A stretch of DNA of 64,000 nt, from contig QZKU01000026.1 of the NCBI GenBank assembly GCA_003598085.1, positions 7,335 to 71,334 of the forward strand, in the 5' to 3' direction. The stretch is from Candidatus Abyssobacteria bacterium SURF_5. Its GTDB lineage: Bacteria > Abyssobacteria > SURF-5. Shown here piece after piece: positions 17,622-28,380 of this stretch. The notes under the pieces are model-generated. The model had not been told where the DNA came from and searched no databases. It saw only the letters and a list, made by a program, of their open reading frames with translations. Numbering within the stretch: position 1 is the stretch's first letter; the number at the start of each line of letters is the position of its first letter. The position numbers and the translations under genes were made by a program.

Positions 17622-18443
17622 TCAGCTTGAACGAGAAAAATCCGGTAACGAGCATCCGTTCTTGATGTAATTCACCGCATTCCGAAATACCGCCACGCCC
17701 ATTCCCTCGCGCGGGGTTTTTTCGCGGGTCCAGCGTGGATGATTGGTCTGAAAAAGGTACGCCTCCGGATGAGGCATCAGGCCGAAAATCCGGCCCGTCA
17801 AATCGCAGATGCCCGCAATGCCGTCTTGCGAGCCGTTGGGATTGTACGGGTATCCGTCTGCTTTCCCCTCTTCATCCACATATTGAAGCACGACGTGTCC
17901 GCCCGCGTGCAGCCGTTCGAGCACGGTTTCACTCGAAGTAACGAGCTTGCCCTCGCCATGACGGACGGGCAGGTACATTCTATCAATCCCTTTTGTGAAA
18001 ATGCAACGCGAATTCGGGTTCGCCGCCAGATAGACCCAGCGGTCTTCAAACTTGCTCGAATCGTTAAACGTCAGCGTCACCTGCTGATCGCCGTATTTCC
18101 GGTCGAGCGCCGGCAAGAATCCCATCTTGACAAGAACCTGGAAACCGTTGCAGATGCCGATGATCAATTTTCCGTCTTCAATAAAACGGAGCAACTGATC
18201 CCGCAGATGCTGTATCAGCTTGTTGGCGAGCACCTTGCCCGCGGCGATATCATCTCCGTATGAGAATCCGCCGGGAATCGCGAGAATGTCATAATCGCTT
18301 AATGATTTCCCGCCCGGCTCGATCAGGTCGTTCACGTGCACCCGCTCGGCGCGACCGCCGACCCGACGCATGTTAAAGGCATACTCGGTCTCATAATCGC
18401 AGTTGATGCCGTAGCCGGTAAGCACTAATACGCTTGGTTTCAT
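17622..18443 (-). CDS. purQ: Phosphoribosylformylglycinamidine synthase, glutaminase subunit
   Basis: Class-I glutamine amidotransferase with GICNGFQ (catalytic Cys) and HPE near the C-terminus; 273 aa. Confidence 0.85.
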   Translation of the reverse strand: MKPSVLVLTGYGINCDYETEYAFNMRRVGGRAERVHVNDLIEPGGKSLSDYDILAIPGGFSYGDDIAAGKVLANKLIQHLRDQLLRFIEDGKLIIGICNGFQVLVKMGFLPALDRKYGDQQVTLTFNDSSKFEDRWVYLAANPNSRCIFTKGIDRMYLPVRHGEGKLVTSSETVLERLHAGGHVVLQYVDEEGKADGYPYNPNGSQDGIAGICDLTGRIFGLMPHPEAYLFQTNHPRWTREKTPREGMGVAVFRNAVNYIKNGCSLPDFSRSS

Positions 18444-18478
18444 AATTCTAATTCAAAGATTTGATATAACCTTGAAAG

Positions 18479-20215
18479 CTAACTCTTAATAAATCTTTTG
18501 TAAAAGACCCAAGTGTTGTGAAAACCTCTCCGTTTATTACGATTTGCGCCTCTGAAAATGACAACATTGATTCCAATTTTTCGGCAGATAGGGCAATTAC
18601 ATCTTTCCCAAGGCTTCTCAGATAGAAGTTTTTCATATTTTTCAGCAAAATGATTGTCTTCACTTTGACGTTCTAACAAAGGTCCGTATCTATTTAATGC
18701 AATAAGAGTTTCTTCTGCTCCTTTTGGATTGTCTCCAAAAACACCCAAGGAGCGAAGACAATTTTCTTCAAGTATACGAGCTTTCTCTTTGGAAAGTTTC
18801 TTATCTGCTACGGCTTCCTGTATCGCTTTGGAATCACTAAACGGTACCCGAACGGCCGCATACCATGTTCCGTCAACCGCCAAATAATTTTGATCCGATC
18901 TTAGCCAAGCCTTCCGAAAATATGAGGCAGAATCAAAGCTAGATACTCCCAATGTGCGAAAAAATGGTTGTAGCTTGGGCCGAAGGATCCCAAATAGATG
19001 CAGCCATAAGTTTTCTTCGTGCCCTCTTGTTCGCTCTTGCAGAGCTTTCCTGACTGCGCCCACAATCTCGATTATTTCTGAATCAGAGCGTGGTACTAAT
19101 CCACCCAAAGCTATATGCCGATATCCCATATCTATGTACTGATGCAAGCAGGATATATAGGAGCGGACACCAACGCCCTGAATGACGCCCATAGGTATAA
19201 AAGAATAGTTCTTTTTCTTCCATAGTCCAATGAATTCAGCAGCGTTTTCTGTTGTCAGTTTTACTCTTTCGTACCTGGCAGATAGACTCAATATGCGCTT
19301 ACGTGAACTTCCATCTTTATGTTTTTTTACTATTTCTTGCAATGGTATATGGTCTACTGACGCGCCTATATCAAAGCCGTATTTGTGGTACATATCTAAA
19401 GCTTCCATTGTGGAAAAAGGAGGTTTACTCTCCGCTGTATATGAAAATGCCCCACAATCTCCAAACAGAAGCATGTTATCCGGGAGTTGTAGCACCTCTC
19501 TGAGGTTTCCAGATGAGCACCTCCCCTTGGCCATTCTATAAATTGCACCTTTACCCATATTCATGTGAGATAAACTTAAAAGCACGCCATCATAAGGGGC
19601 ATCTTTGCCGTATATTTCATGGGCGTATGCTTTACGAGACTCACCAGCCTTTATGGGTTCTTTGCCTTCGTCTGGAATAAATGGCTCATCAACGTAATCG
19701 TCCCAATCAGGAAAAAAATAAATATATGAGCGGATGCTTTTACCTTTTTTTTCGATAGATGCTGTCTTAGATGGCAGTTTTTCAAGCCATGATTTCATGG
19801 CTTTCATTTTCATGCCGATGGGTCCTTTTGCGTAAGTAAACTTCGCTTTTGGGAAGATTTTCTCAATCCCCCTGACCGCATTAAGATAATCTGCACCTAA
19901 ATTCAGGAATATACCCTCCGGCTGTGATAGCTTTTGAAGCGCTGATAGGACCCTTTTGTTAAATGATGTGGCAGAATGCGAGTCAAAACGCTGGTCGTAT
20001 TGACTTATTATAGTTGTAGCATCGATCAATCCATATTTGGCTGAGAGAATCTTAATCTGTAATCCCGGAGGCCAGCCTTTAACGAGAAGCATTTTTCTTA
20101 GAACTCGAAAGTTAACTCCATCATACAAGCACATGGCCGGAGCTTTTATTACCTGCGGTAATTTAGTTTTTGAACAGGCCACTATCAATAAGTGACCTTC
20201 GAGGTGAGTTGTCAT
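18479..20215 (-). CDS. TGT-family (queuine/archaeosine tRNA-ribosyltransferase-like, DpdA-like) base-exchange enzyme with a roughly 230 aa N-terminal domain of unknown function
   Basis: The C-terminal approx. 350 aa carry the TGT hallmarks. LFGDCGAFSY aligns to the TGT Asp-nucleophile loop (DSGGFQ). GVSSFDSASYF aligns to the second catalytic Asp loop (GxDMFDCV). The C-terminal zinc site CNCPICx22H matches TGT CxCxxC...H. The protein is Lys-rich, AT-rich codon usage; 578 aa. Confidence 0.72.
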   Translation of the reverse strand: MTTHLEGHLLIVACSKTKLPQVIKAPAMCLYDGVNFRVLRKMLLVKGWPPGLQIKILSAKYGLIDATTIISQYDQRFDSHSATSFNKRVLSALQKLSQPEGIFLNLGADYLNAVRGIEKIFPKAKFTYAKGPIGMKMKAMKSWLEKLPSKTASIEKKGKSIRSYIYFFPDWDDYVDEPFIPDEGKEPIKAGESRKAYAHEIYGKDAPYDGVLLSLSHMNMGKGAIYRMAKGRCSSGNLREVLQLPDNMLLFGDCGAFSYTAESKPPFSTMEALDMYHKYGFDIGASVDHIPLQEIVKKHKDGSSRKRILSLSARYERVKLTTENAAEFIGLWKKKNYSFIPMGVIQGVGVRSYISCLHQYIDMGYRHIALGGLVPRSDSEIIEIVGAVRKALQERTRGHEENLWLHLFGILRPKLQPFFRTLGVSSFDSASYFRKAWLRSDQNYLAVDGTWYAAVRVPFSDSKAIQEAVADKKLSKEKARILEENCLRSLGVFGDNPKGAEETLIALNRYGPLLERQSEDNHFAEKYEKLLSEKPWERCNCPICRKIGINVVIFRGANRNKRRGFHNTWVFYKRFIKS

Positions 20216-21033
20216 TTTTTGTAAATGAATTTGCGCTTGTAATTGTTGGTTAAGTTAAATTGATTATTCGCTAAAATTAAATGTGGAAGTTCCTCAAAGG
20301 ATGATATTGTAAAATGTGGACAAATATCCCTTACCGCCGGCATCCAAAATGGCTGAAAGCCACCAGCGAAATAGATAGTGTAGAATCCAGCTTCCTTAGC
20401 AGGCGCTATATCTCGATCAAGCTGGTCTCCGACCATGTAATTTGACTGAGATGCAACATCAAATTCTGCAAGGATCTCTTGATATATCCTCACTTCTTTC
20501 CTTGCAACTAGGATTTTGTGGATGTAATTAGAAAGCTCATACTTATTCAGTAATAATTTGCACTTATCCCGGTTACCTTCCGTTAGGATAACCAGAAGCC
20601 CACCTCGCTGGTGTAATTTCTTTACGCCCTGACGCACCCCAATCCGTAATGGCGGAATTTCCGATTTCAGTTTTTTAATGAACAGCATCTCCATTTCGTT
20701 AATAAAATCTCGGCCCAGCACATCTGTTCCTGTTCTTACTGCTTCTCTCACCGACACGAGGGGAGAATGTCCCGTCAGAGCTAGGGCTAGGGCATTTATT
20801 AGCAATCGCGCAGGATATTCCAAATTATAATTATGCAGTCGCGCTAAATTTTGATCCATCCTTCTCAGAAACGAAAGCTTATCATCCGAGGGAGCAGTAA
20901 CCTTCAAATGCTTTTCGATCTCGGAAAGCAAAATCAATTGGCTTTTCGCATACACCAAATCAGTATCCCATAATGTATTATCTGCATCCAAGACCACTAG
21001 CACTTCTCGGTTCCTTTTAGATTTTGCCTTCAT
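20212..21033 (-). CDS. HAD-superfamily hydrolase/phosphatase. The track ORF extends to 21129; the start is placed at Met MKAKSKRN to avoid overlap with the upstream gene
   Basis: HAD motif I VVLDADNTLWDTD (DxDxT), motif II ILTEGN, conserved Lys, and motif IV GDQLDRD; 4-nt overlap with the TGT-like gene. Confidence 0.72.
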   Translation of the reverse strand: MKAKSKRNREVLVVLDADNTLWDTDLVYAKSQLILLSEIEKHLKVTAPSDDKLSFLRRMDQNLARLHNYNLEYPARLLINALALALTGHSPLVSVREAVRTGTDVLGRDFINEMEMLFIKKLKSEIPPLRIGVRQGVKKLHQRGGLLVILTEGNRDKCKLLLNKYELSNYIHKILVARKEVRIYQEILAEFDVASQSNYMVGDQLDRDIAPAKEAGFYTIYFAGGFQPFWMPAVRDICPHFTISSFEELPHLILANNQFNLTNNYKRKFIYKK

Positions 21034-21053
21034 ATGAACCCTACTTGAAAAAG

Positions 21054-21746
21054 CTACAATGTCTCTGGGAAAACAAACATCAATCCACAAATGACTATCC
21101 ACAAAACAAAAACGATTGTACTTAGCCACAACATAAAAACCCCCAGTTGAAGGGTTTGCAGCTTAATTCGAATTTTATAAGCTATTAAATAAGCCTCATG
21201 AATGTAATGCTTTATATACAGCAATTGAAGTTGATTACTGCAATTGTCGCAAAATGCTGCTGCCCAACCTCTGGGGGTAGCCTCAATTATCTTTGGAAAG
21301 AACAGGAAGGAGGCTGGATTTTTCAAGTCTGCACTTTTCGGAGGTGAACCTTTCGACCAATCATGAGGTACGTTAAATCGTGGTCTAACTGACCAAATTA
21401 TGAAAGAAGCTCCTGAAACTACCAACAGACAGAAGAGACCGAATACGGAATAGAAAAGCCACAATGTCCAACTCCACATTTGATAATTCATCAATGACCC
21501 ATTGTCGTCTTTGGGAAGAAGAGCCACAAAAATTGCTCCTGCGAGAGCGCTTAAGAACGCGGTTGCTGTCAATATCCGGTTGGCCTTTTCGTCTTCATAT
21601 TCCGTAAGGTGCTTTACCTCCTCGAAAGAGGTTTTCGCAAAACTTAGCAGAGCACCAAGGTCTTCTCTTGCAGGATCAAGATTCTTCAGTTCTGAAAATA
21701 TGGGCTCTGAAATCTTCCGGCTTTCAGAAGGGCTAGCCTTAGCCAT
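21054..21746 (-). CDS. Small integral membrane protein (about 60 aa cytoplasmic N-terminus plus 3 predicted TM helices), a candidate membrane effector of the island
   Basis: Hydrophobic segments ILTATAFLSALAGAIFVALL, WTLWLFYSVFGLFCLLVVSGASFIIW and LGVFMLWLSTIVFVLWIVICGLMFVF; no enzymatic motif; AT-rich. Confidence 0.5.
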   Translation of the reverse strand: MAKASPSESRKISEPIFSELKNLDPAREDLGALLSFAKTSFEEVKHLTEYEDEKANRILTATAFLSALAGAIFVALLPKDDNGSLMNYQMWSWTLWLFYSVFGLFCLLVVSGASFIIWSVRPRFNVPHDWSKGSPPKSADLKNPASFLFFPKIIEATPRGWAAAFCDNCSNQLQLLYIKHYIHEAYLIAYKIRIKLQTLQLGVFMLWLSTIVFVLWIVICGLMFVFPETL

Positions 21747-21791
21747 TGATCTCTTTGTCCCTCCCTTGTCTTCCGTTATTCCTTCTCATTA

Positions 21792-22976
21792 TTATGGGAC
21801 TGTTGGCTTGGATTGCTTTTGAGCAGGACAAAAATTCTTGAAATCACATGCTGTGCAGGTTCTAATATTCTGATTAGTCTTCCAGCATTTTCTGATAGCT
21901 ACTCCAGCAATTTCTGCAAGCACGGAAGCCTCAATTTCTTCAACAGTTTGATCAAATCTGGATAAACTAGCTCCTATCGCACTTTTATTCACGGGAATAA
22001 TTCTTATTGAGCGATTTTCTTTGAACGTCCTAGAAAGACTAGGTAAATTGCTGCGTCGGTTCCAGCGTTGGATATTTTCTAGGTCCTTGCCTGTTGCCAT
22101 TATATCAGTTTGGCCTTGGTTGATATCGTTCTTAAGTGCTAGCATATCTTCAATTGATAAAGCTAATTCATTTATATATATGAGTATACCCGCTATTATT
22201 TGCTTTGCGCCCACCTGTTGTGATCGTAGCCAGGAATAGGTGAGAATCTGCCATTCGTGATGTTTCCACGTTTCGTCAACAAAAGAAGGGCGGCGCATGC
22301 CTTTGTAATCGACAATGATTTCATATTCATCAAGGGAAGAAACTTTGAAGTAATGCTGAACATCTGAATGCTGATTCAAATAATGCAGAAGCAGACTTCC
22401 AGATGGAGCATTTACAATGCTAACAGAGCTTATGACATCAATAACGCCCTTCATTCCATAATAATTTGATCTGCTAAGATTGGGATGATAACTTGGCATG
22501 TCTCGACTGCACTTCAATTTCACTTCTGCCTCGGCAATTATTGGAAACAGATGCATTCCCCATGTGTTTATGGCCATTTCTGCTCGCTGGCTAGCAATAA
22601 GTTTATGTGGATGATTGGCGTCGGGACAAAACCCTGGTGTCGTTGCAGAAGAATCAAATGGACAAAAAAGATTTGGCGGAGGTGGAAGACCTCTCGCGAT
22701 CAATCTATCATTAATTTGCGCTTCGACATTACGGATGTCTGATTCCCATAGCCACGGAAATCTTCTCTTTTTTGGCTCGTCACGCCATTCACGATACGCC
22801 TCTTCCATCAATCCATGGATAAATTCACCAAACCACAACTGAACCGGAGTCGATGGTGGGAGGGACCCTTTATTGTAATATCTATACTGAAGGCCGCATG
22901 TTAAGAATGCCAACAAGTCACCCGTCAAGCTGTATTCAGGAATACTATACGGTTTTGGTCGTACAGAAAGAAACAT
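21792..22976 (-). CDS. Cas4/RecB-like PD-(D/E)xK nuclease with a 4Fe-4S cluster cysteine set
   Basis: N-terminal C...YRYY motif (LTCGLQYRYY) typical of the Cas4/AddB nuclease domain. Core MKGVIDVI (Asp) plus IVDYKG (D-x-K). C-terminal Cys triad CTACDFKNFC. 394 aa. Confidence 0.68.
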   Translation of the reverse strand: MFLSVRPKPYSIPEYSLTGDLLAFLTCGLQYRYYNKGSLPPSTPVQLWFGEFIHGLMEEAYREWRDEPKKRRFPWLWESDIRNVEAQINDRLIARGLPPPPNLFCPFDSSATTPGFCPDANHPHKLIASQRAEMAINTWGMHLFPIIAEAEVKLKCSRDMPSYHPNLSRSNYYGMKGVIDVISSVSIVNAPSGSLLLHYLNQHSDVQHYFKVSSLDEYEIIVDYKGMRRPSFVDETWKHHEWQILTYSWLRSQQVGAKQIIAGILIYINELALSIEDMLALKNDINQGQTDIMATGKDLENIQRWNRRSNLPSLSRTFKENRSIRIIPVNKSAIGASLSRFDQTVEEIEASVLAEIAGVAIRKCWKTNQNIRTCTACDFKNFCPAQKQSKPTVP

Positions 22977-22982
22977 TTGCTC

Positions 22983-25331
22983 CTACCTCAAATGTGTCAG
23001 GTTTTGTAGTCCCCTGCCCCAATGCCAGGTATTACCTCTATCCCATCCGGTGCCGATATTGCGGATTCTATTTTTGACGGCATTCAGCCCAACTAGCAAG
23101 AGGACATCCTGAGCTCTACTGAAGGCAACAAAGTAATGTCTAATAAGATCGTCAAATGCTCTATCAAGGGATGAACGTGTTGACGTTCCCAAGGGAGAAA
23201 ACTGCCTCAATTCATCTTCAATCTTACATGTTTTGCCGCCATCTCTTGGGAATCTCTTAAAAGCCTGTCGCCAGTGATTTATCCTAAAATCACTTCCTAC
23301 ATCTACAATTACAAATGGGAATTCCAGTCCTTTTGCCTGATGAATTGACATGATATTAACTCTGTCGCTAGGAAGCGTATCAAGTAGGTCCTCATTGACT
23401 TCTATGGCTCCGCTGGCTAATGGAACAAAGATGTTCCAAAGCGCCTCTTTAACAAAAGCGTGCTCTAGACGGATATCGGCCTTATTTGGGTCGAATAGGA
23501 TTTCTGCTCCGAAGCTTCCAAACAAACCACTCTGATTGATGGATCTAGTTATAGCTTCAAGATAAACCAATCCTTCTATGTCGTCTTGCATGCTAGGTAT
23601 CCAAGTCACAAGCTTATAAACTAGATCATTCAGTGGGACTCTCTCCTTTTTCTGAATTCTTCTCCCCAGAGGAATTCGAGATTGCCAAGATTGAACGAAC
23701 TGTTGAAGATGTTCCTTGTTTGCGAGGTGGTTATTATTGACATAACCCATGGCATGGTCACGCCACGAGTTGAATGTGTTGGCCGCTGTCGTCGGCAGAT
23801 TTGTTAAACTCTTTTGAACGGAACTCCATGGATCAACACATTCCAGAATTAGACCACAAAGCACTTGCACTTCTGGAATTTGTTGAAGGGGACATCCGCG
23901 TGGATTAAAAACTTCAATTCGGGGCGATGCTTCATGTAGTTCAGTTCGTAGGAGAAAGGGAAGTCGCGGTCTATCAGAGTAATCAAATTCTTGCGGAGAA
24001 GAACATAACAAGGCAATATCACCGAGAGAGCCATCTTTGTTCAGCTTAATCGTAGCTGCCTGTCCTTTTTGGGGGATCCGCAGACCTTGTCCTCTCGACA
24101 CTTCTTCAATGAGTACAGCCAAATCATGAGCTAACGATCCGACGTCGTCTCTAAACATACCTAGAATTGGACATTCTTGTGGTTCTGGAATTTGCCGTAC
24201 GTGTTTAATTTTAGGTTTAGAGTTTACGCGAGCTTTCTGAAATTGCTGATCCAAGCCAATGAAGTTATTTATAAATTCTACGATAGTCGGAGTCGACCGA
24301 TAATTTAAAGAAAGATATTTTGGAACTGGTTTGAGATTTAAACATTTGGCCATTCTCTTTTCGAACGACCGAAATAATTCTACTGTTGCACCGCGAAAGC
24401 GGTAAAGCGATTGATCGTCATCTCCGACAACAGTAATGCTTCCCTTGTTAATTAAGGCAGCACGTGTCAATTCAAAGTATATCTTCTCTTGAAGTAGGTT
24501 TGTGTCCTGATATTCATCTATTAGGACGAACTTTATATTTTGAAGAAAGGAGTTTAACTTTTGGGAAAGAATTTGTTGAAAAAACTCTGCTTCTAATTTT
24601 GCAAAATCGTACAAAAGCTTCTTCTGTAATTCTTGATTATATGCAGTGATGGCATCACACGCAATTTGTGCTCCCAAATGCTGAGCCTTCCGTTGGAATG
24701 CAGAAATATCTATTTGGTCATGAAAGAAACGGTCTTTAATTTCTCTTAAAGTAGAACTTAACTCAGGAACATTTAACCCGAAGGTTCCACCTCTTAAAGA
24801 AGCAACATAATTCAGCAGATTTGGGTCCTTGTATCTGCCATTGGAAAAAAGGCCAGTCCGCATCATCAAGGCATTTGAAACAAAATCTTGGACTACGATT
24901 GGCGCAGGAGCACCAGGAGCGCGATAATTTCCTAAAGTCTCTTCAGCTATGCTGTCCAGAGTTCCTGTAATAATCCTGTTGAAATCTAGTGACTTCAACC
25001 TTGATCTTAACTTCTCGTATGATGAATCCTTTAGGAAAGCAGCACGAAGTTGGTCTCCCCATCCTAGAATCCTTGACCTAAGTTCAGCGGCAGCTTTACG
25101 GGTAAAGGTGGTAACCAATACATTCGAGGGGTCCATTTCATCAAGATATATTAACTTCAGCACTCTAAGTGTAATGACAGTTGTCTTACCACTGCCCGGT
25201 CCCGCGATAAGATAAAGCGAGGAACCTTGAGCAGCCTTAATCGCTTCATATTGGCTAAGATTTTTTTCTTTTCGTATGTCTCTCTGAATGAAGGTCAATA
25301 CGGCTTTTTCAAAATCGGGCCAACTAATCAT
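22983..25331 (-). CDS. UvrD/Rep/PcrA-like superfamily-1 DNA helicase
   Basis: Walker A AGPGSGKT, Ia VTTFTRKAAAEL, motif II VLIDEYQDTN, III VVGDDDQSLYRFRGA, IV LSLNYRSTPTIVEF and VI IHQAKGLEFPFVIV; 782 aa; 6-nt gap to the nuclease gene. Confidence 0.88.
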   Translation of the reverse strand: MISWPDFEKAVLTFIQRDIRKEKNLSQYEAIKAAQGSSLYLIAGPGSGKTTVITLRVLKLIYLDEMDPSNVLVTTFTRKAAAELRSRILGWGDQLRAAFLKDSSYEKLRSRLKSLDFNRIITGTLDSIAEETLGNYRAPGAPAPIVVQDFVSNALMMRTGLFSNGRYKDPNLLNYVASLRGGTFGLNVPELSSTLREIKDRFFHDQIDISAFQRKAQHLGAQIACDAITAYNQELQKKLLYDFAKLEAEFFQQILSQKLNSFLQNIKFVLIDEYQDTNLLQEKIYFELTRAALINKGSITVVGDDDQSLYRFRGATVELFRSFEKRMAKCLNLKPVPKYLSLNYRSTPTIVEFINNFIGLDQQFQKARVNSKPKIKHVRQIPEPQECPILGMFRDDVGSLAHDLAVLIEEVSRGQGLRIPQKGQAATIKLNKDGSLGDIALLCSSPQEFDYSDRPRLPFLLRTELHEASPRIEVFNPRGCPLQQIPEVQVLCGLILECVDPWSSVQKSLTNLPTTAANTFNSWRDHAMGYVNNNHLANKEHLQQFVQSWQSRIPLGRRIQKKERVPLNDLVYKLVTWIPSMQDDIEGLVYLEAITRSINQSGLFGSFGAEILFDPNKADIRLEHAFVKEALWNIFVPLASGAIEVNEDLLDTLPSDRVNIMSIHQAKGLEFPFVIVDVGSDFRINHWRQAFKRFPRDGGKTCKIEDELRQFSPLGTSTRSSLDRAFDDLIRHYFVAFSRAQDVLLLVGLNAVKNRIRNIGTGWDRGNTWHWGRGLQNLTHLR

Positions 25332-25350
25332 AGATGCACTTTTTACAACC

Positions 25351-28300
25351 TCACCAGTTCAGCGGCTGCTGCCATGCCCGCTTCAATTGGAATATATCGG
25401 CTGAAAGGATCTTTTGTCTGCCATTTTTCAAGACCAGGAGTGGAGATCGTGTTACTTTTCCCGCTCTGGCAAATGGGACTCCATCCATCATTTGTTCAAA
25501 CTCTTTCGCTTTTCGAGGAGGAACAGTTATCACGAACCGGCTCTGGGACTCGGAGAATAGCAGGTAATCGGCGCGCAGAGGTTCAGGCTGCGGAACGGCG
25601 GACAGATCGGCCGTGATGCCGAATCCGCCGGCAAAGGCGCTTTCCGCAAGCGCGACTCCGAGACCGCCGTCGGAGCAGTCGTGGCACGAGGCGATCAGGC
25701 GGCGATCGATCGCATCCGATACTCTTGAATAAATCTGTCTTGCAAGCTGAGAATTCACCCGCGGTACTGAATTCCCGATGAACCCGTGGTGCGCGAAGTA
25801 TTCGCTGCCGCCCAGTTCATTCTTCGTCACGCCGACCACGTATACGAGGTGGCTTGGCCGCTTCACGTCCATCGAAACGACTTTGCGCACGTCCTCGATC
25901 CGCCCGAGCACCGAGAACAGGAGCGTGGGCGGCACCGATATCTTGATGTCGCCGATCATGTAATCGTTCTTCATGCTGTCCTTGCCCGAGATGCAGGGAA
26001 CATCGTACGCCGTACAATAGTCGTAAAGCGCCATGTTCGAACGGACAAGCTGCGCGAGTTTGTAGTACCCGTCGGGCGTCTTCTCCGATTGCACAGGATC
26101 GGGCCAGCAGAAGTTGTCGAGTCCGGCCAGATACCCAAGCCGGCCGCCGACAGAAATCGCATTTCTCACCGCCTCGTCGATAGCGCAGGCGGTCATGTGA
26201 TATGTGTCGAGGTCGCTGTAGCGCGGGCAGATGCCGCTCGCAACGACCACGCCTTCATATGAATCATACAGAGGCTTCAGGACGGCTGCATCGCCGGGCC
26301 CGTCATTGGAGCTGCCGATAAACGGCTTGAGCGCGCTCAAGCCCTGGACCTCATGATCGTATTGCCGTACAAACGACTCTTTGCTGCACACGTTCAGCCG
26401 CGCCAGCATCTGCTCCAGCAAACGGTTGTAGTCCTGCGGCTCGGGAAGGTCCGGCTCTTCGTGCTTCGGCGCCTTCCAGCGCGCCTGCAAATTCATTCTC
26501 GGCACGCCCTCATGCAGGAAATCCATGTCGAGGTGAGCAACCACCTTACTTTCGTACAGAACCTCAAATTTGCCGGAATCGGCAAATGTTCCAAGCACCG
26601 TCGCTTCGACGTCGCGCCTCCTGGCCAGTTCGAGAAAGCGATCGATCTTTTCGGGATCAACCGCGAGCGTCATTCGCTCCTGCGCTTCCGATAGCAGGAT
26701 TTCCCACGGCTGCAGGCCCTTATATTTCAAGGGCGCCTTCTCAAGTTCGATCCGGCATCCGTTGGAGAAGCGCGCCATTTCGCCGACCGACGACGAAAGG
26801 CCGCCGGCGCCGTTGTCCGTGATCGCGCGGTACAATCCCAGATCGCGGGCCTCAAGCAGGAAATCGGTCATCTTCTTCTGCGTGATCGCGTCGCCGATCT
26901 GAACCGCCGACGTCGGCGACTCGCTGTGAAGTTCTTCGGATGAAAAGGTGGCGCCGTGAATGCCGTCCTTGCCGATCCGACCGCCGGTCATCACGATCAG
27001 GTCGCCCGGCAAAGCGGTCTTTTCATGCGCCGGCTCGCCGAGTATCTCCTTCGGCATGAGCCCGCCTGTCCCGCAGAACACGAGCGGCTTGCCCGCGTAA
27101 CGGTCGTCAAAGAGGATGCTGCCGTTGACATCCGGAATCCCGCTCTGGTTTGCGCCGTCGCGCACGCCACGGTGCACGCCCTTGAAGATGCGCTTCGGAT
27201 GGAGCAGGCGGGGCGGGAGAGGCTTGTCATAATCCGGTGGAGCGAAACAGAACGTGTCCACATTGAAAATCAGACGACACCCCTTGCCGGTGCCGAAAGG
27301 ATCACGGTTGACGCCGACGATGCCGGTTACCGCGCCGCCGTATGGATCGAGAGCTGACGGGCTGTTGTGCGTTTCCACCTTCATGACCAGGTTCCACCTG
27401 TCATTGAAGCGGATGACTCCGGCATTGTCGTGGAAAACCGATACCAGCCACGGAACCCGCTTGGAAATCTCGTCGGTCGAACGTCTGATATACGTCTTGA
27501 ACAGGCCGTTGATTTGGCGCCGGCCCTGTTCGTCCTCATAATCGATGAAGGCGTTGAATATCTTGTGCTTGCAATGTTCCGACCACGTCTGCGCAATGCA
27601 TTCCAGTTCGACGTCTGTCGGCTGATTCGAAAGTCCGTACCTGCTGCGATCGCGAATCGCGTTTTCGCTGCGAAAATAATTGCGGATCACCCGCATCTCA
27701 TCGAGACTGAGCGAAAGGATCCCCTCGCGGCTGATGCGTATCAGCTCCTGGTCGGACACAGCAAGATCGAAAGCCTTGACATGGACTGGCTGCGGTGTCC
27801 CTGCCAACGGAAGCGGGAGTGAGATGCCGCCGGAACGGCGGAATTCATCGGCGTCGGCGATGCGCCACTGTTCGATCAGGCCGTTGGCCAGCAGCCCGCC
27901 GGCGATTCTCTCAACCTGAGCCCGCTCCAGGCGGCCCCGCAAAACATATTGTTTGGCGGTGAAGACGGTGCTCCCGTCCGCGCGCTCTCCAAAGATATCG
28001 ATCATCGCCTCGCGCGAAGTCTTGCCTACATTATCGGTGACTCCGGGTTTGAAGCCGATTTCGATGACCCACGAGAAATCAGAGGCCAGAGGCTGGTCGA
28101 GCGTGGACACATCGATGACGGGATCGGCGAACAGGTGCGTGCGAAGCATGTCGGCGTCGTCGCATCTCAGGCTGGTCAACAGCGTGTATACCCGTATTAG
28201 CCGCGCGTCGTCGACGGCGATATGCAGGTCTTCCACGATATTTTTTCGAATGGCGTCGCCCGCGGCATCGAATTGATCGCGCCGCAGCCCGACTTCTATT

Positions 28301-28380
28301 CTGTAGGTATTAAGATCAATCACGGTTACCGCCGGTACTTTACCTTCCCTGTCCCCGAAACTATTCGCCCGATAGTCCAA
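25351..28380 (-). CDS. purL: Phosphoribosylformylglycinamidine synthase subunit PurL with N-terminal PurS-like domain(s) fused. The annotated start is TTG; an alternative GTG at 28323 sits 2 nt after the purM stop
   Basis: AIR-synthase-related domains (SFGDREG..., PurM-like repeats) with an N-terminus resembling PurS (KPGVTDNVGKTSREAMIDI); 1009 aa. Confidence 0.85.
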   Translation of the reverse strand: MDYRANSFGDREGKVPAVTVIDLNTYRIEVGLRRDQFDAAGDAIRKNIVEDLHIAVDDARLIRVYTLLTSLRCDDADMLRTHLFADPVIDVSTLDQPLASDFSWVIEIGFKPGVTDNVGKTSREAMIDIFGERADGSTVFTAKQYVLRGRLERAQVERIAGGLLANGLIEQWRIADADEFRRSGGISLPLPLAGTPQPVHVKAFDLAVSDQELIRISREGILSLSLDEMRVIRNYFRSENAIRDRSRYGLSNQPTDVELECIAQTWSEHCKHKIFNAFIDYEDEQGRRQINGLFKTYIRRSTDEISKRVPWLVSVFHDNAGVIRFNDRWNLVMKVETHNSPSALDPYGGAVTGIVGVNRDPFGTGKGCRLIFNVDTFCFAPPDYDKPLPPRLLHPKRIFKGVHRGVRDGANQSGIPDVNGSILFDDRYAGKPLVFCGTGGLMPKEILGEPAHEKTALPGDLIVMTGGRIGKDGIHGATFSSEELHSESPTSAVQIGDAITQKKMTDFLLEARDLGLYRAITDNGAGGLSSSVGEMARFSNGCRIELEKAPLKYKGLQPWEILLSEAQERMTLAVDPEKIDRFLELARRRDVEATVLGTFADSGKFEVLYESKVVAHLDMDFLHEGVPRMNLQARWKAPKHEEPDLPEPQDYNRLLEQMLARLNVCSKESFVRQYDHEVQGLSALKPFIGSSNDGPGDAAVLKPLYDSYEGVVVASGICPRYSDLDTYHMTACAIDEAVRNAISVGGRLGYLAGLDNFCWPDPVQSEKTPDGYYKLAQLVRSNMALYDYCTAYDVPCISGKDSMKNDYMIGDIKISVPPTLLFSVLGRIEDVRKVVSMDVKRPSHLVYVVGVTKNELGGSEYFAHHGFIGNSVPRVNSQLARQIYSRVSDAIDRRLIASCHDCSDGGLGVALAESAFAGGFGITADLSAVPQPEPLRADYLLFSESQSRFVITVPPRKAKEFEQMMDGVPFARAGKVTRSPLLVLKNGRQKILSADIFQLKRAWQQPLNW

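Follow-up and report, generated by a model that had tools for sequence, protein, structure and literature searches.

Within the 64-kb stretch of DNA that we analyzed (the window), a five-gene island of 6.9 kb (18444..25350) is wedged between purL (25351-28380) and purQ (17622-18443), as assigned from translations of the open reading frames. The island is marked off in the composition profile and at its junctions by its low GC content, approximately 41% compared with 58%, and its genes all lie on the minus strand, in the order UvrD-like helicase, Cas4-like PD-(D/E)XK nuclease, PycTM-like membrane protein, HAD phosphatase and a fusion of a DUF6884 domain to DpdA (DUF6884::DpdA). The helicase (22983..25331, minus strand, 782 aa) is an SF1 enzyme resembling UvrD, PcrA and AddA (Pfam UvrD-helicase, 2e-45), with matches to PADLOC GajB/RTasHel (~3e-34) and to NCBIfam PcrA/AddA (~1e-39), far under their cut-offs. 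The nuclease (21792..22976, minus strand, 394 aa) is Cas4/AddB-like (Pfam PDDEXK_1, 5e-10; PADLOC Cas4 models, 7e-7), and a UvrD-like helicase and a PD-(D/E)XK nuclease both adjoin Dpd genes in 20 loci. The two genes stand in the place of DpdD-K (SNF2/DEAD helicases, PLD nuclease and others), all of them missing from the window; no ORF like that of the ParB/DndB-like ATPase DpdB is present in the whole 64 kb, and the window's own island contains neither QueD nor any other preQ0 gene. No integrase was found in the island and no terminator-like site at its ends; inside it, promoter-like sites show no excess over shuffles. We note that terminator-like sites within the island number 18, an excess over the 7.4 seen in shuffles. 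The same five-gene set recurs at loci L016, L087, L088 and L089 with a membrane protein next to the HAD, and at L029, L041 and L054 with a soluble protein in that position. The five-gene system is compact and horizontally acquired, and recurs in several phyla.

The HAD gene, placed correctly at 20212-21033 by the first-pass annotation, lies on the minus strand and encodes 273 aa, beginning with the ATG at 21033 and ending with the TGA at 20214..20212. We assign this start because all homologues in our alignment begin 8-15 residues ahead of the DADNT motif; a longer ORF that opens with GTG and reaches up to 21129 was rejected, as it would run into the upstream gene and the alignment favors the ATG. 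The Pfam models HAD_2 (2.7e-10), Hydrolase (5e-9) and Hydrolase_like (4e-7) all match past their cut-offs, and motifs I-IV are intact (D16-x-D18-x-T20, T151-E152, K179 and G202-D203-x3-D208). Motif I, D16-A-D18-N-T20, is unchanged in 24 and in 17 aligned sequences, K179 is invariant, T151 of motif II is Ser in a distant clade and motif IV reads G202-D203-Q-L-D-R-D208; the catalytic residues of the family do not vary over 25-100% identity. The second Asp of DxDxT is a mark of phosphotransferases and not of dehalogenases, and we rule out haloacid dehalogenase activity because motif I keeps this Asp at +2.

In the AF2 model (pLDDT 90.7) the protein consists of a Rossmannoid core with a helical cap set in right after motif I, and the cap, inspection of which had been proposed as a check, is of class C1, with five helices over the active site. 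The second Asp of DxDxT, this cap and the fold matches bear out the original designation of the gene product as a HAD phosphatase, as far as predicted activity goes. The homologue alignment also reveals invariant cap residues of the family's own (R57, D60, Q61, H67, Y73 and P74), and the signature of the subfamily can be written as DADNTLWDTD ... R..DQ ... (R/E)Y(P) ... (T/S)EG ... K ... GD(Q/S)L.RDI ... YFPGGF.P.W. The best NCBIfam match is to the uncharacterised CTE7 subfamily TIGR02253 (1.7e-13; 50.9 bits, cut-off 169.75) and the next best to TIGR02254, the YjjG/YfnB non-canonical pyrimidine nucleotidase (5e-9; 35.9 bits, below the equivalog cut-off of 159.9), and no family of characterised HADs is matched at anything near its cut-off. 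The top fold matches include YfnB, and the nearest structures are of proteins without known function. The C1-capped HAD-IA relatives YjjG/YfnB, PH1655 (2hoq), 2pke, 3ddh and NANP/HDHD4 are 15-22% identical to the HAD, and we know of none of them from a DNA-modification island. No PADLOC model, those of the Dpd gene set included, matches the HAD.

Downstream of the HAD gene, a DUF6884 (DpdC/YaaA-related) domain is fused to a DpdA DNA-guanine transglycosylase (18479..20215, minus strand, 578 aa), as judged with NCBIfam, PADLOC and Pfam. The gene had been described simply as TGT-like and proves to encode a true DpdA, since its residues 166-575 reach 362.6 bits with NF041059, the equivalog model of DpdA in NCBIfam (cut-off 200), and the PADLOC DpdA model matches at 2e-102; a zinc motif, CxCxxC...H, lies near the C-terminus. 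The N-terminal DUF6884 domain (residues 10-141) is above the Pfam cut-off at 3.5e-10 and its translation contains CxxxK and LSAxxG motifs. With 160 aa, this domain is half the length of DpdC, a protein of the DUF328/YaaA type, and its matches to YaaA (0.0036) and DpdC (0.0054) are weak.

The stop codon TGA of the HAD gene and the start codon ATG (20215) of DUF6884::DpdA share an ATGA at 20212..20215 on the minus strand (the plus strand reads tcat), and the 4-nt overlap noted earlier is therefore present in the sequence. Junctions of this kind are frequent in operons, and the overlap by itself tells us little. At L016 and L087 the HAD and fusion genes are parted by ~416 nt, and at L029, L041, L054, L088 and L089 their order or strand is different. 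The translational coupling of HAD to DpdA that had been proposed from this overlap is peculiar to the window and is not kept in relatives; the conserved coupling is that of the upstream partner to the HAD.

In the window this partner is a PycTM-like (PF18967/DUF5706) membrane protein (21054..21746, minus strand) with three hydrophobic segments at residues 57-79, 91-122 and 196-230. It matches the PADLOC PycTM model at 7e-10 over nearly the whole model and the CBASS 2TM effector model at 3e-4. In our own Pfam search PF18967 scored 0.0018 (19.1 bits, under the gathering cut-off of 27.2), while the precomputed annotation does list PF18967 and the UniRef name of the protein begins "Pycsa". Each of 85 homologues has PF18967 as its sole domain, and the three membrane-protein homologues whose neighborhoods we looked up all adjoin a HAD gene and a DUF6884::TGT gene. 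Immediately 5' of the HAD gene lies either a PycTM-like gene (37 of 50 loci) or a gene for a soluble protein, which we call Y (13 of 50), of ~330 aa and with no assignable fold; the two are mutually exclusive. The stop codon of the partner falls no more than 45 nt ahead of the D16 codon in 52 of 73 loci, and in a single case (L023) the two are fused in frame, with the HAD attached to the C-terminus of the membrane domain. The HAD gene always pairs with a gene upstream of it, for a PycTM-like or a soluble protein, in a two-gene cassette. The HAD's partner resembles the Pycsar effector PycTM in that it matches PycTM models almost entire and carries PF18967 in public records; it differs in its Pfam score below the cut-off and in that its subfamily is tied to HAD and Dpd genes, and the pyrimidine cyclase PycC was found neither among the five island genes nor in the related loci.

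We find that the association of this HAD with DpdA extends well beyond the window. Among 50 loci with full flanks, DpdA lies within 10 kb of a close HAD homologue in 45, a tally in which DpdB, DpdC and QueC each score 41 and QueD scores 39, and the link is still present for HADs that are just 27-30% identical (L060, L061 and L067). The co-occurrence with TGT-like genes in other genomes, to which the first-pass annotation had pointed as a check, thus bears out a functional link to DpdA. That annotation had also held that its reading would be undone if the HAD gene stood at this position in relatives without the other four genes. For the most part it does not: the HAD occurs with a membrane partner and without Dpd genes in only 5 of the 50 loci, and the four of these that have annotated neighbors (L006, L031, L040 and L053) lie beside genes for an integrase, a transposase, a resolvase or a T4SS. 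We considered the clade of most distant HADs as a clue to ancestral function and set it aside, most of its loci being unrelated housekeeping contexts (TonB receptor, GGDEF-EAL, LigA, ABC permease).

In long-form relatives the HAD gene is found inside islands with DpdA, two DpdB, DpdC, QueC/D/E and a VUT/YhhQ-like transporter, and the neighbors of HAD homologues reach PADLOC scores of 6e-82 for DpdC and of 5e-122 and 3e-109 for DpdB. On the Agrobacterium vitis plasmid CP146243.1, genes annotated by PGAP as dpdA, dpdB, dpdD, dpdJ, dpdK and dpdH surround the HAD gene, and the metagenomic loci L083 and P0006 likewise place it in Dpd islands. Of the 51 loci that combine a HAD with DpdA, 20 have UvrD plus PDDEXK as the restriction module, 18 have DpdD/K/J/I and 7 have SNF2/DEAD helicases, three of the loci falling in two of these classes. 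That the restriction module changes while the HAD stays suggests that the HAD is tied to 7-deazaguanine chemistry and not to one nuclease machinery. It had been supposed that the HAD was another difference from Dpd clusters, a view we abandon, as the same HAD family sits within bona fide Dpd islands, the 18 loci with DpdD/K/J/I among them.

The HAD is missing from 13 of 17 plasmid-borne bacterial Dpd islands, and so is present in roughly a quarter of them; a canonical Enterobacter Dpd island also does without it. A tblastn search of 50,697 phage records gave no match to the HAD, and phage 7-deazaguanine clusters, which produce preQ0 and put it into DNA in bulk, do without it, which argues that the making and insertion of preQ0 do not in themselves require it. 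We accordingly rejected the HAD as part of the core pathway for these steps. The cassette may make or trim a substrate of its own, as the first-pass annotation proposed. The family is found in Pseudomonadota, Acidobacteriota, Planctomycetota, Bacteroidota, Chloroflexota, Verrucomicrobiota and Candidatus Abyssobacteria. Our literature search found no paper describing this pair of HAD and small membrane protein, or DpdA together with HAD-specific terms. We conclude that the HAD very probably represents a distinct subfamily of predicted C1-capped HAD-IA phosphomonoesterases and a recurrent accessory of Dpd islands, one that accompanies about a quarter of Dpd clusters and has apparently not been described.

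In Salmonella Montevideo, which encodes dpdA-K, DpdA and DpdB put preQ0 into DNA and DpdC converts it to dADG, and DpdA in vitro requires DpdB (PMC10164549). The island in the window resembles this system in having a gene that passes the NCBIfam DpdA equivalog and a DpdC-related DUF6884 domain, but it differs in that DpdB, a full-length DpdC and DpdD-K are absent and in its additional PycTM-like protein and HAD. By analogy with the family, DpdA would replace guanine in the DNA of the host with preQ0, which in the window's system must be of host origin, and the fused DpdC-related domain would probably turn preQ0 into the 7-amido form, although we count both the half-length of DUF6884 relative to DpdC and its weak match against this end product. 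The helicase and nuclease, again judging from what is known of their families, would take over from DpdD-K as the attacker of unmodified DNA.

Our best guess for the HAD, which we put forward tentatively, is that it is a nucleotidase-type small-molecule phosphatase acting on 7-deazaguanine (deoxy)nucleoside monophosphates and tied to its membrane partner. It would dephosphorylate such monophosphates when they are freed by turnover of modified DNA, and might in this way keep 7-deazaguanine nucleotides out of the dNTP pool, so that modification stays site-specific; the resulting nucleoside or base could then be recycled or expelled. The HAD of the toyocamycin pathway dephosphorylates a 7-deazapurine nucleoside monophosphate. 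In toyocamycin and tubercidin clusters a HAD enzyme lies beside preQ0/CDG biosynthesis genes (bioRxiv 10.64898/2026.04.15.718813). The likeness to the HAD in the window is one of gene context; in those clusters a phosphoribosyltransferase makes the nucleotide and there is no DpdA, whereas the island in the window has no phosphoribosyltransferase and the base would go straight into DNA. We note that our leaning toward a nucleotidase comes from the match to the YjjG/YfnB model, the YfnB fold match and these HADs of the toyocamycin and tubercidin clusters. We also note that the absence of DpdB from the window stands against our reading of the system, given the dependence of the Salmonella enzyme in vitro. 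Any sanitising role would be dispensable, as the 13 plasmid-borne islands and all the phage clusters that do without a HAD indicate, and one would hardly expect a house-cleaning enzyme to be paired with a homologue of a pore-forming effector.

We regard a different explanation as possible though hardly probable: the PycTM-like protein or Y may be a cell-killing effector, of the kind of the membrane effectors of Pycsar or CBASS, controlled by the HAD, which would hydrolyze a phosphorylated ligand, or sense it through its phospho-aspartyl state, in a putative abortive-infection layer attached to Dpd islands. The nearly full-length PycTM and the CBASS 2TM effector matches, and PF18967 as the only domain in 85 of 85 homologues, favor this idea, as does the swapping of membrane for soluble partner around a constant HAD, which recalls effectors in signalling defence systems. 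The single polypeptide of L023, the occurrence of the cassette by itself in mobile islands (L006, L031, L040 and L053) and its absence from phages point the same way. However, no cyclase or other signal-making enzyme is annotated in the islands, the invariance of the catalytic residues implies that the HAD works as an enzyme rather than as a mere binding domain, and the cassette tracks the modification and preQ0-supply genes whatever the restriction module. A bolder version, which strikes us as rather unlikely, is that the partner and HAD form a self-contained, undescribed immunity module in which the HAD gates the membrane or soluble effector according to a phosphorylated metabolite related to 7-deazaguanine. 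Dpd islands would thereby gain a further layer of defense, an abortive one, that could for instance act on phages escaping restriction through 7-deazaguanine DNA of their own, and the five-gene island would be a new DpdB-independent type of Dpd with an AddAB/Cas4-like restriction module.

When QueD forms 6-carboxytetrahydropterin from dihydroneopterin triphosphate, inorganic triphosphate or pyrophosphate is set free, and the HAD might conceivably help in precursor supply by splitting it, or by dephosphorylating a pterin phosphate, and so pull or tune flux to preQ0. QueD is indeed the preQ0 gene most persistently beside the cassette and the sole one kept in the compact loci L088 and L089, two Entotheonella loci have a QueD-like PTPS gene that runs into the start of a distant HAD, and long islands place the cassette after queE-queD-queC(-VUT) or folE2. 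We nevertheless consider such a role improbable, as the island in the window lacks QueD and every other preQ0 gene, phage clusters equipped with FolE/QueD/E/C yield much more preQ0 and yet do not have this HAD, and the membrane partner would be left unexplained. That the HAD strips 3'-phosphates from nicks or abasic-site products left when DpdA transglycosylation aborts or when the nuclease cuts is very improbable indeed: its neighbors all act on DNA and DNA 3'-phosphatases, such as the HAD domain of polynucleotide kinase-phosphatase, are among the DxDxT phosphatases, but a large five-helix C1 cap covers the active site in the model, C1 caps in the HAD superfamily go with small-molecule substrates while macromolecule phosphatases are capless, and every one of the best fold matches is to a small-molecule HAD.

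Dpd systems are among the largest and least understood of restriction-modification systems. To our knowledge, the published Dpd parts list (DpdA-K and the preQ0 genes) includes no phosphatase and no membrane protein. A HAD and a PycTM-like protein that accompany the modification genes with any restriction module point to a missing step in 7-deazaguanine DNA biology, which could be nucleotide-pool hygiene, control of the precursor or an effector held in reserve. At 6.9 kb, the five-gene form is compact enough for direct cloning and testing, and it raises the question of how DpdA can work without the DpdB ATPase.

We have found that the HAD gene of the window belongs to a family that shows genetic coupling with a partner protein, either membrane-bound or soluble, and with a 7-deazaguanine DNA-modification module, whatever the restriction module beside it. 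Scanning one genome per species, we retrieved 80 loci encoding HAD relatives (an L prefix marks the numbers of these and other loci), typed their neighbours by iterated profile searches of the six-frame ORFs, and counted neighbours in the 50 loci that have a close HAD homologue with 8 kb or more of sequence on each side. DpdA lies within 10 kb of HAD in 45 of these, DpdB, DpdC and QueC in 41 each, and QueD in 39. The functional link to DpdA is thus real and strong, and the first-pass annotation was mistaken in treating the HAD as a difference from Dpd clusters, since its relatives sit inside islands with DpdA, DpdB, DpdC and QueC/D. The typical long form reads dpdC-dpdB-dpdA-dpdB-queE-queD-queC-(VUT/YhhQ-like transporter)-membrane protein-HAD, with support from Pfam and PADLOC (DpdC, 6e-82; DpdB, 5e-122 and 3e-109) and from Agrobacterium vitis plasmid CP146243.1, whose PGAP annotation places dpdD, dpdK, dpdJ and dpdH a few kb beyond. 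The metagenomic relatives closest to the window HAD show the same pattern, one example being HTH-queC-queD-queE-folE2-PycTM-HAD-dpdC-dpdB-dpdA-dpdB-SNF2-DEAD. Two DpdB paralogues with strong PADLOC matches flank dpdA in the long form (L039, 4023-5117 and 6397-7434, and likewise about 40 loci), whereas the Salmonella/Enterobacter type has only one. A VUT-family gene (YhhQ-like, the preQ0 transporter family) stands between queC and the HAD-partner cassette at L082 (12507-13070, on CP146243.1) and at about 18 other long-form loci, and such islands therefore encode both precursor synthesis and uptake.

HAD and DpdA occur together in 51 loci. Queried with Dpd restriction proteins, these show UvrD plus PD-(D/E)XK in 20, DpdD/K/J/I in 18, SNF2/DEAD helicases in seven and no restriction module within reach in nine, three loci being counted in two classes; HAD is therefore the constant element and the restriction module is swapped. 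The UvrD-like helicase and Cas4-like PD-(D/E)XK pair adjoins full dpdC-dpdB-dpdA-dpdB-queEDC operons in 20 loci (including L009, L021, L022, L024, L026, L027, L032, L037, L039, L045, L047 and L069). The pair seems to stand in for the DpdD-K restriction genes; both occur in L009.

In the window, GC content is about 58% but only about 41% in the stretch from 18.4 to 25.4 kb, the sole such drop within 64 kb. This island (18444-25350) is seated between purL and purQ of the purine operon with spacers of 19 and 35 nt and carries five genes, every one on the minus strand: a UvrD/PcrA/AddA-like helicase (782 aa), a PD-(D/E)XK Cas4-like nuclease (394 aa), a three-segment membrane protein (230 aa; PycTM models, PADLOC 7e-10), the HAD (273 aa) and a DUF6884::DpdA fusion (578 aa, 20215..18479). 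Because the pur genes share this orientation, the spacers are short, the island contains no integrase and no terminator-like site flanks it, the five genes are probably co-transcribed with the pur genes. DpdB, QueC, QueD and QueE were found nowhere within the 64-kb window. The same compact set, in some cases joined by QueD or QueC/D/E, is found again at L016/L087 (Deltaproteobacteria), at L088 and at L089 (Korobacteraceae), and with the alternative partner at L029, L041 and L054. A lone QueD (PTPS), unaccompanied by QueC or QueE, occurs in L088 (3252-3614) and L089 (4895-5260), which thus duplicate a single step of preQ0 synthesis. Residues 166-575 of the fusion pass the NCBIfam DpdA equivalog (362.6 versus 200 bits), and residues 10-141 form the DUF6884 domain, whose motifs CxxxK and LSAxxG are both found in the translation; DpdC belongs to the YaaA family (DUF328), of which DUF6884 is a distant relative (PMC11701544; PMC11888242; PMC5699537). 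Another compact Dpd-like layout pairs DUF6884::DpdA with a second, short TGT-like gene between two DEAD-box helicases (L085, Picosynechococcus plasmid NZ_CP014001.1, 1074-9403; L067, 10026-15738); L067 has a HAD and the cyanobacterial plasmid does not.

The HAD gene comprises 273 codons on the minus strand, from an ATG at 21033 to a TGA at 20214..20212. A longer GTG-initiated frame reaching 21129 was rejected: it would extend 76 nt into the upstream gene and disagrees with homologue starts, which in the alignment all fall 8-15 residues N-terminal to the DADNT motif and so indicate 21033. The first-pass annotation had placed the gene correctly, leaving its strand unstated, and had reported a 4-nt coupling to the TGT-like gene that the ORF list and sequence bear out: tcat on the plus strand at 20212-20215 is ATGA on the minus strand, so that the HAD stop shares four bases with the ATG of the fusion gene. 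Overlaps of this kind are very common between operon genes and alone prove little; present in the window, this one is seen in no other related locus.

The HAD protein is predicted to be an intact, C1-capped small-molecule phosphatase, on the strength of Pfam, motifs, structural model and NCBIfam matches. HAD_2, Hydrolase and Hydrolase_like all score above cut-off, placing it in the HAD superfamily, and a database search, which traced the window to Candidatus Abyssobacteria bacterium SURF_5, returned 358 relatives, the closest other than itself at 47% identity. Across 24 aligned relatives the catalytic residues D16, D18, T20, E152, K179, G202, D203 and D208 never vary, T151 is nearly constant, and a set of cap-region residues peculiar to the family (W22, D25, R57, D60, Q61, H67, Y73 and P74) is conserved likewise. 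An Asp two residues past the nucleophile marks phosphoryl-transfer HADs, not dehalogenases. In the AlphaFold2 model, which is confident (pLDDT 90.7, pTM 0.86), an insertion of five helices spanning residues 24-124 immediately follows motif I and forms the C1 cap. Among NCBIfam models the uncharacterised CTE7 subfamily scores best (TIGR02253, 1.7e-13), followed by the non-canonical nucleotidase family YjjG/YfnB (5e-9); each match falls far short of its cut-off, and the protein is not a member of the YjjG family. Polymerases readily use 7-deaza-dGTP, and recycled modified nucleotides would therefore blur a site-specific self mark. Together with the YjjG/YfnB resemblance and the HAD enzymes of 7-deazapurine antibiotic clusters (bioRxiv 10.64898/2026.04.15.718813), this leads us to prefer, tentatively, a nucleotidase acting on 7-deazaguanine (deoxy)nucleoside monophosphates.

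Unlike the overlap with DpdA, the coupling of HAD to its upstream partner is truly conserved. The gene directly upstream encodes a PycTM-like membrane protein in 37 of the 50 loci and a soluble protein of about 330 aa, Y, in the other 13, the two being mutually exclusive, and in 52 of 73 loci the partner stop lies at most 45 nt ahead of the D16 codon, so that the partner gene abuts or overlaps the HAD start. PF18967 is the sole domain in all 85 membrane-protein homologues, and the three looked up all adjoin HAD and a DUF6884::TGT gene. In a Tepidisphaerales MAG (L023, 9173-10756) membrane protein and HAD form a single 527-aa frame, a Rosetta-stone hint that the two might act as one unit; the frame may instead be the product of an assembly frameshift. 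As a slightly less likely rival to the nucleotidase reading, HAD may gate its partner, PycTM-like or Y, as an effector that provides abortive back-up.

The association has limits. Five of the 50 loci carry the cassette without Dpd genes, and in the four with annotated neighbours (L006, L007, L031 and L040, leaving out L053) these are a transposase with a T4SS coupling protein, an integrase, a large helicase or a resolvase. Among plasmid records, 26 carry DpdA-like genes (17 of these records being bacterial) and five carry HAD, four of the five together with DpdA. No HAD was found in a canonical Enterobacter dpd island, in the cyanobacterial DUF6884::DpdA island with DEAD helicases or among the phage records searched; phages are rich in DpdA/preQ0 clusters, according to two papers (PMC6884629; PMC10516641), and HAD is dispensable there for preQ0 synthesis and insertion. 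Distant HADs (24-29% identity) keep the Dpd link in part: DpdA is present beside L060, L061 and L067, a QueD-like gene overlaps the HAD start in Entotheonella L071 and L077, and others lie in unrelated housekeeping contexts. The Candidatus Entotheonella operon (L077, 7568-10798; L071, 7568-10804) encodes a RibD_C-reductase, an unknown protein, a QueD-like PTPS and HAD, with no DpdA, and may serve a pterin- or deazapurine-related small-molecule pathway. A role for HAD in the service of QueD, hydrolysing triphosphate, pyrophosphate or a pterin phosphate, is improbable, and a DNA 3'-phosphatase, made unlikely by the cap, is very improbable indeed.

Judged from its genes, the window island is predicted to work like a Dpd system: DpdA would replace guanine in DNA with preQ0, a DpdC-like domain would hydrate the inserted preQ0 to the amide (chemistry applied here from PMC10164549), and helicase and nuclease would target unmodified DNA. 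It differs from Dpd in the absence of DpdB and DpdD-K and matches DpdC ambiguously; lacking the cyclase of Pycsar, it is not a Pycsar system. No PADLOC model matches HAD, and no paper in the literature searched mentions HAD with DpdA; a figure or supplement may nevertheless have shown it before (Thiaville 2016). Two things therefore appear new: an accessory cassette of Dpd islands, as yet undescribed, and a compact Dpd-like system that lacks DpdB and carries an AddAB/Cas4-like restriction module.
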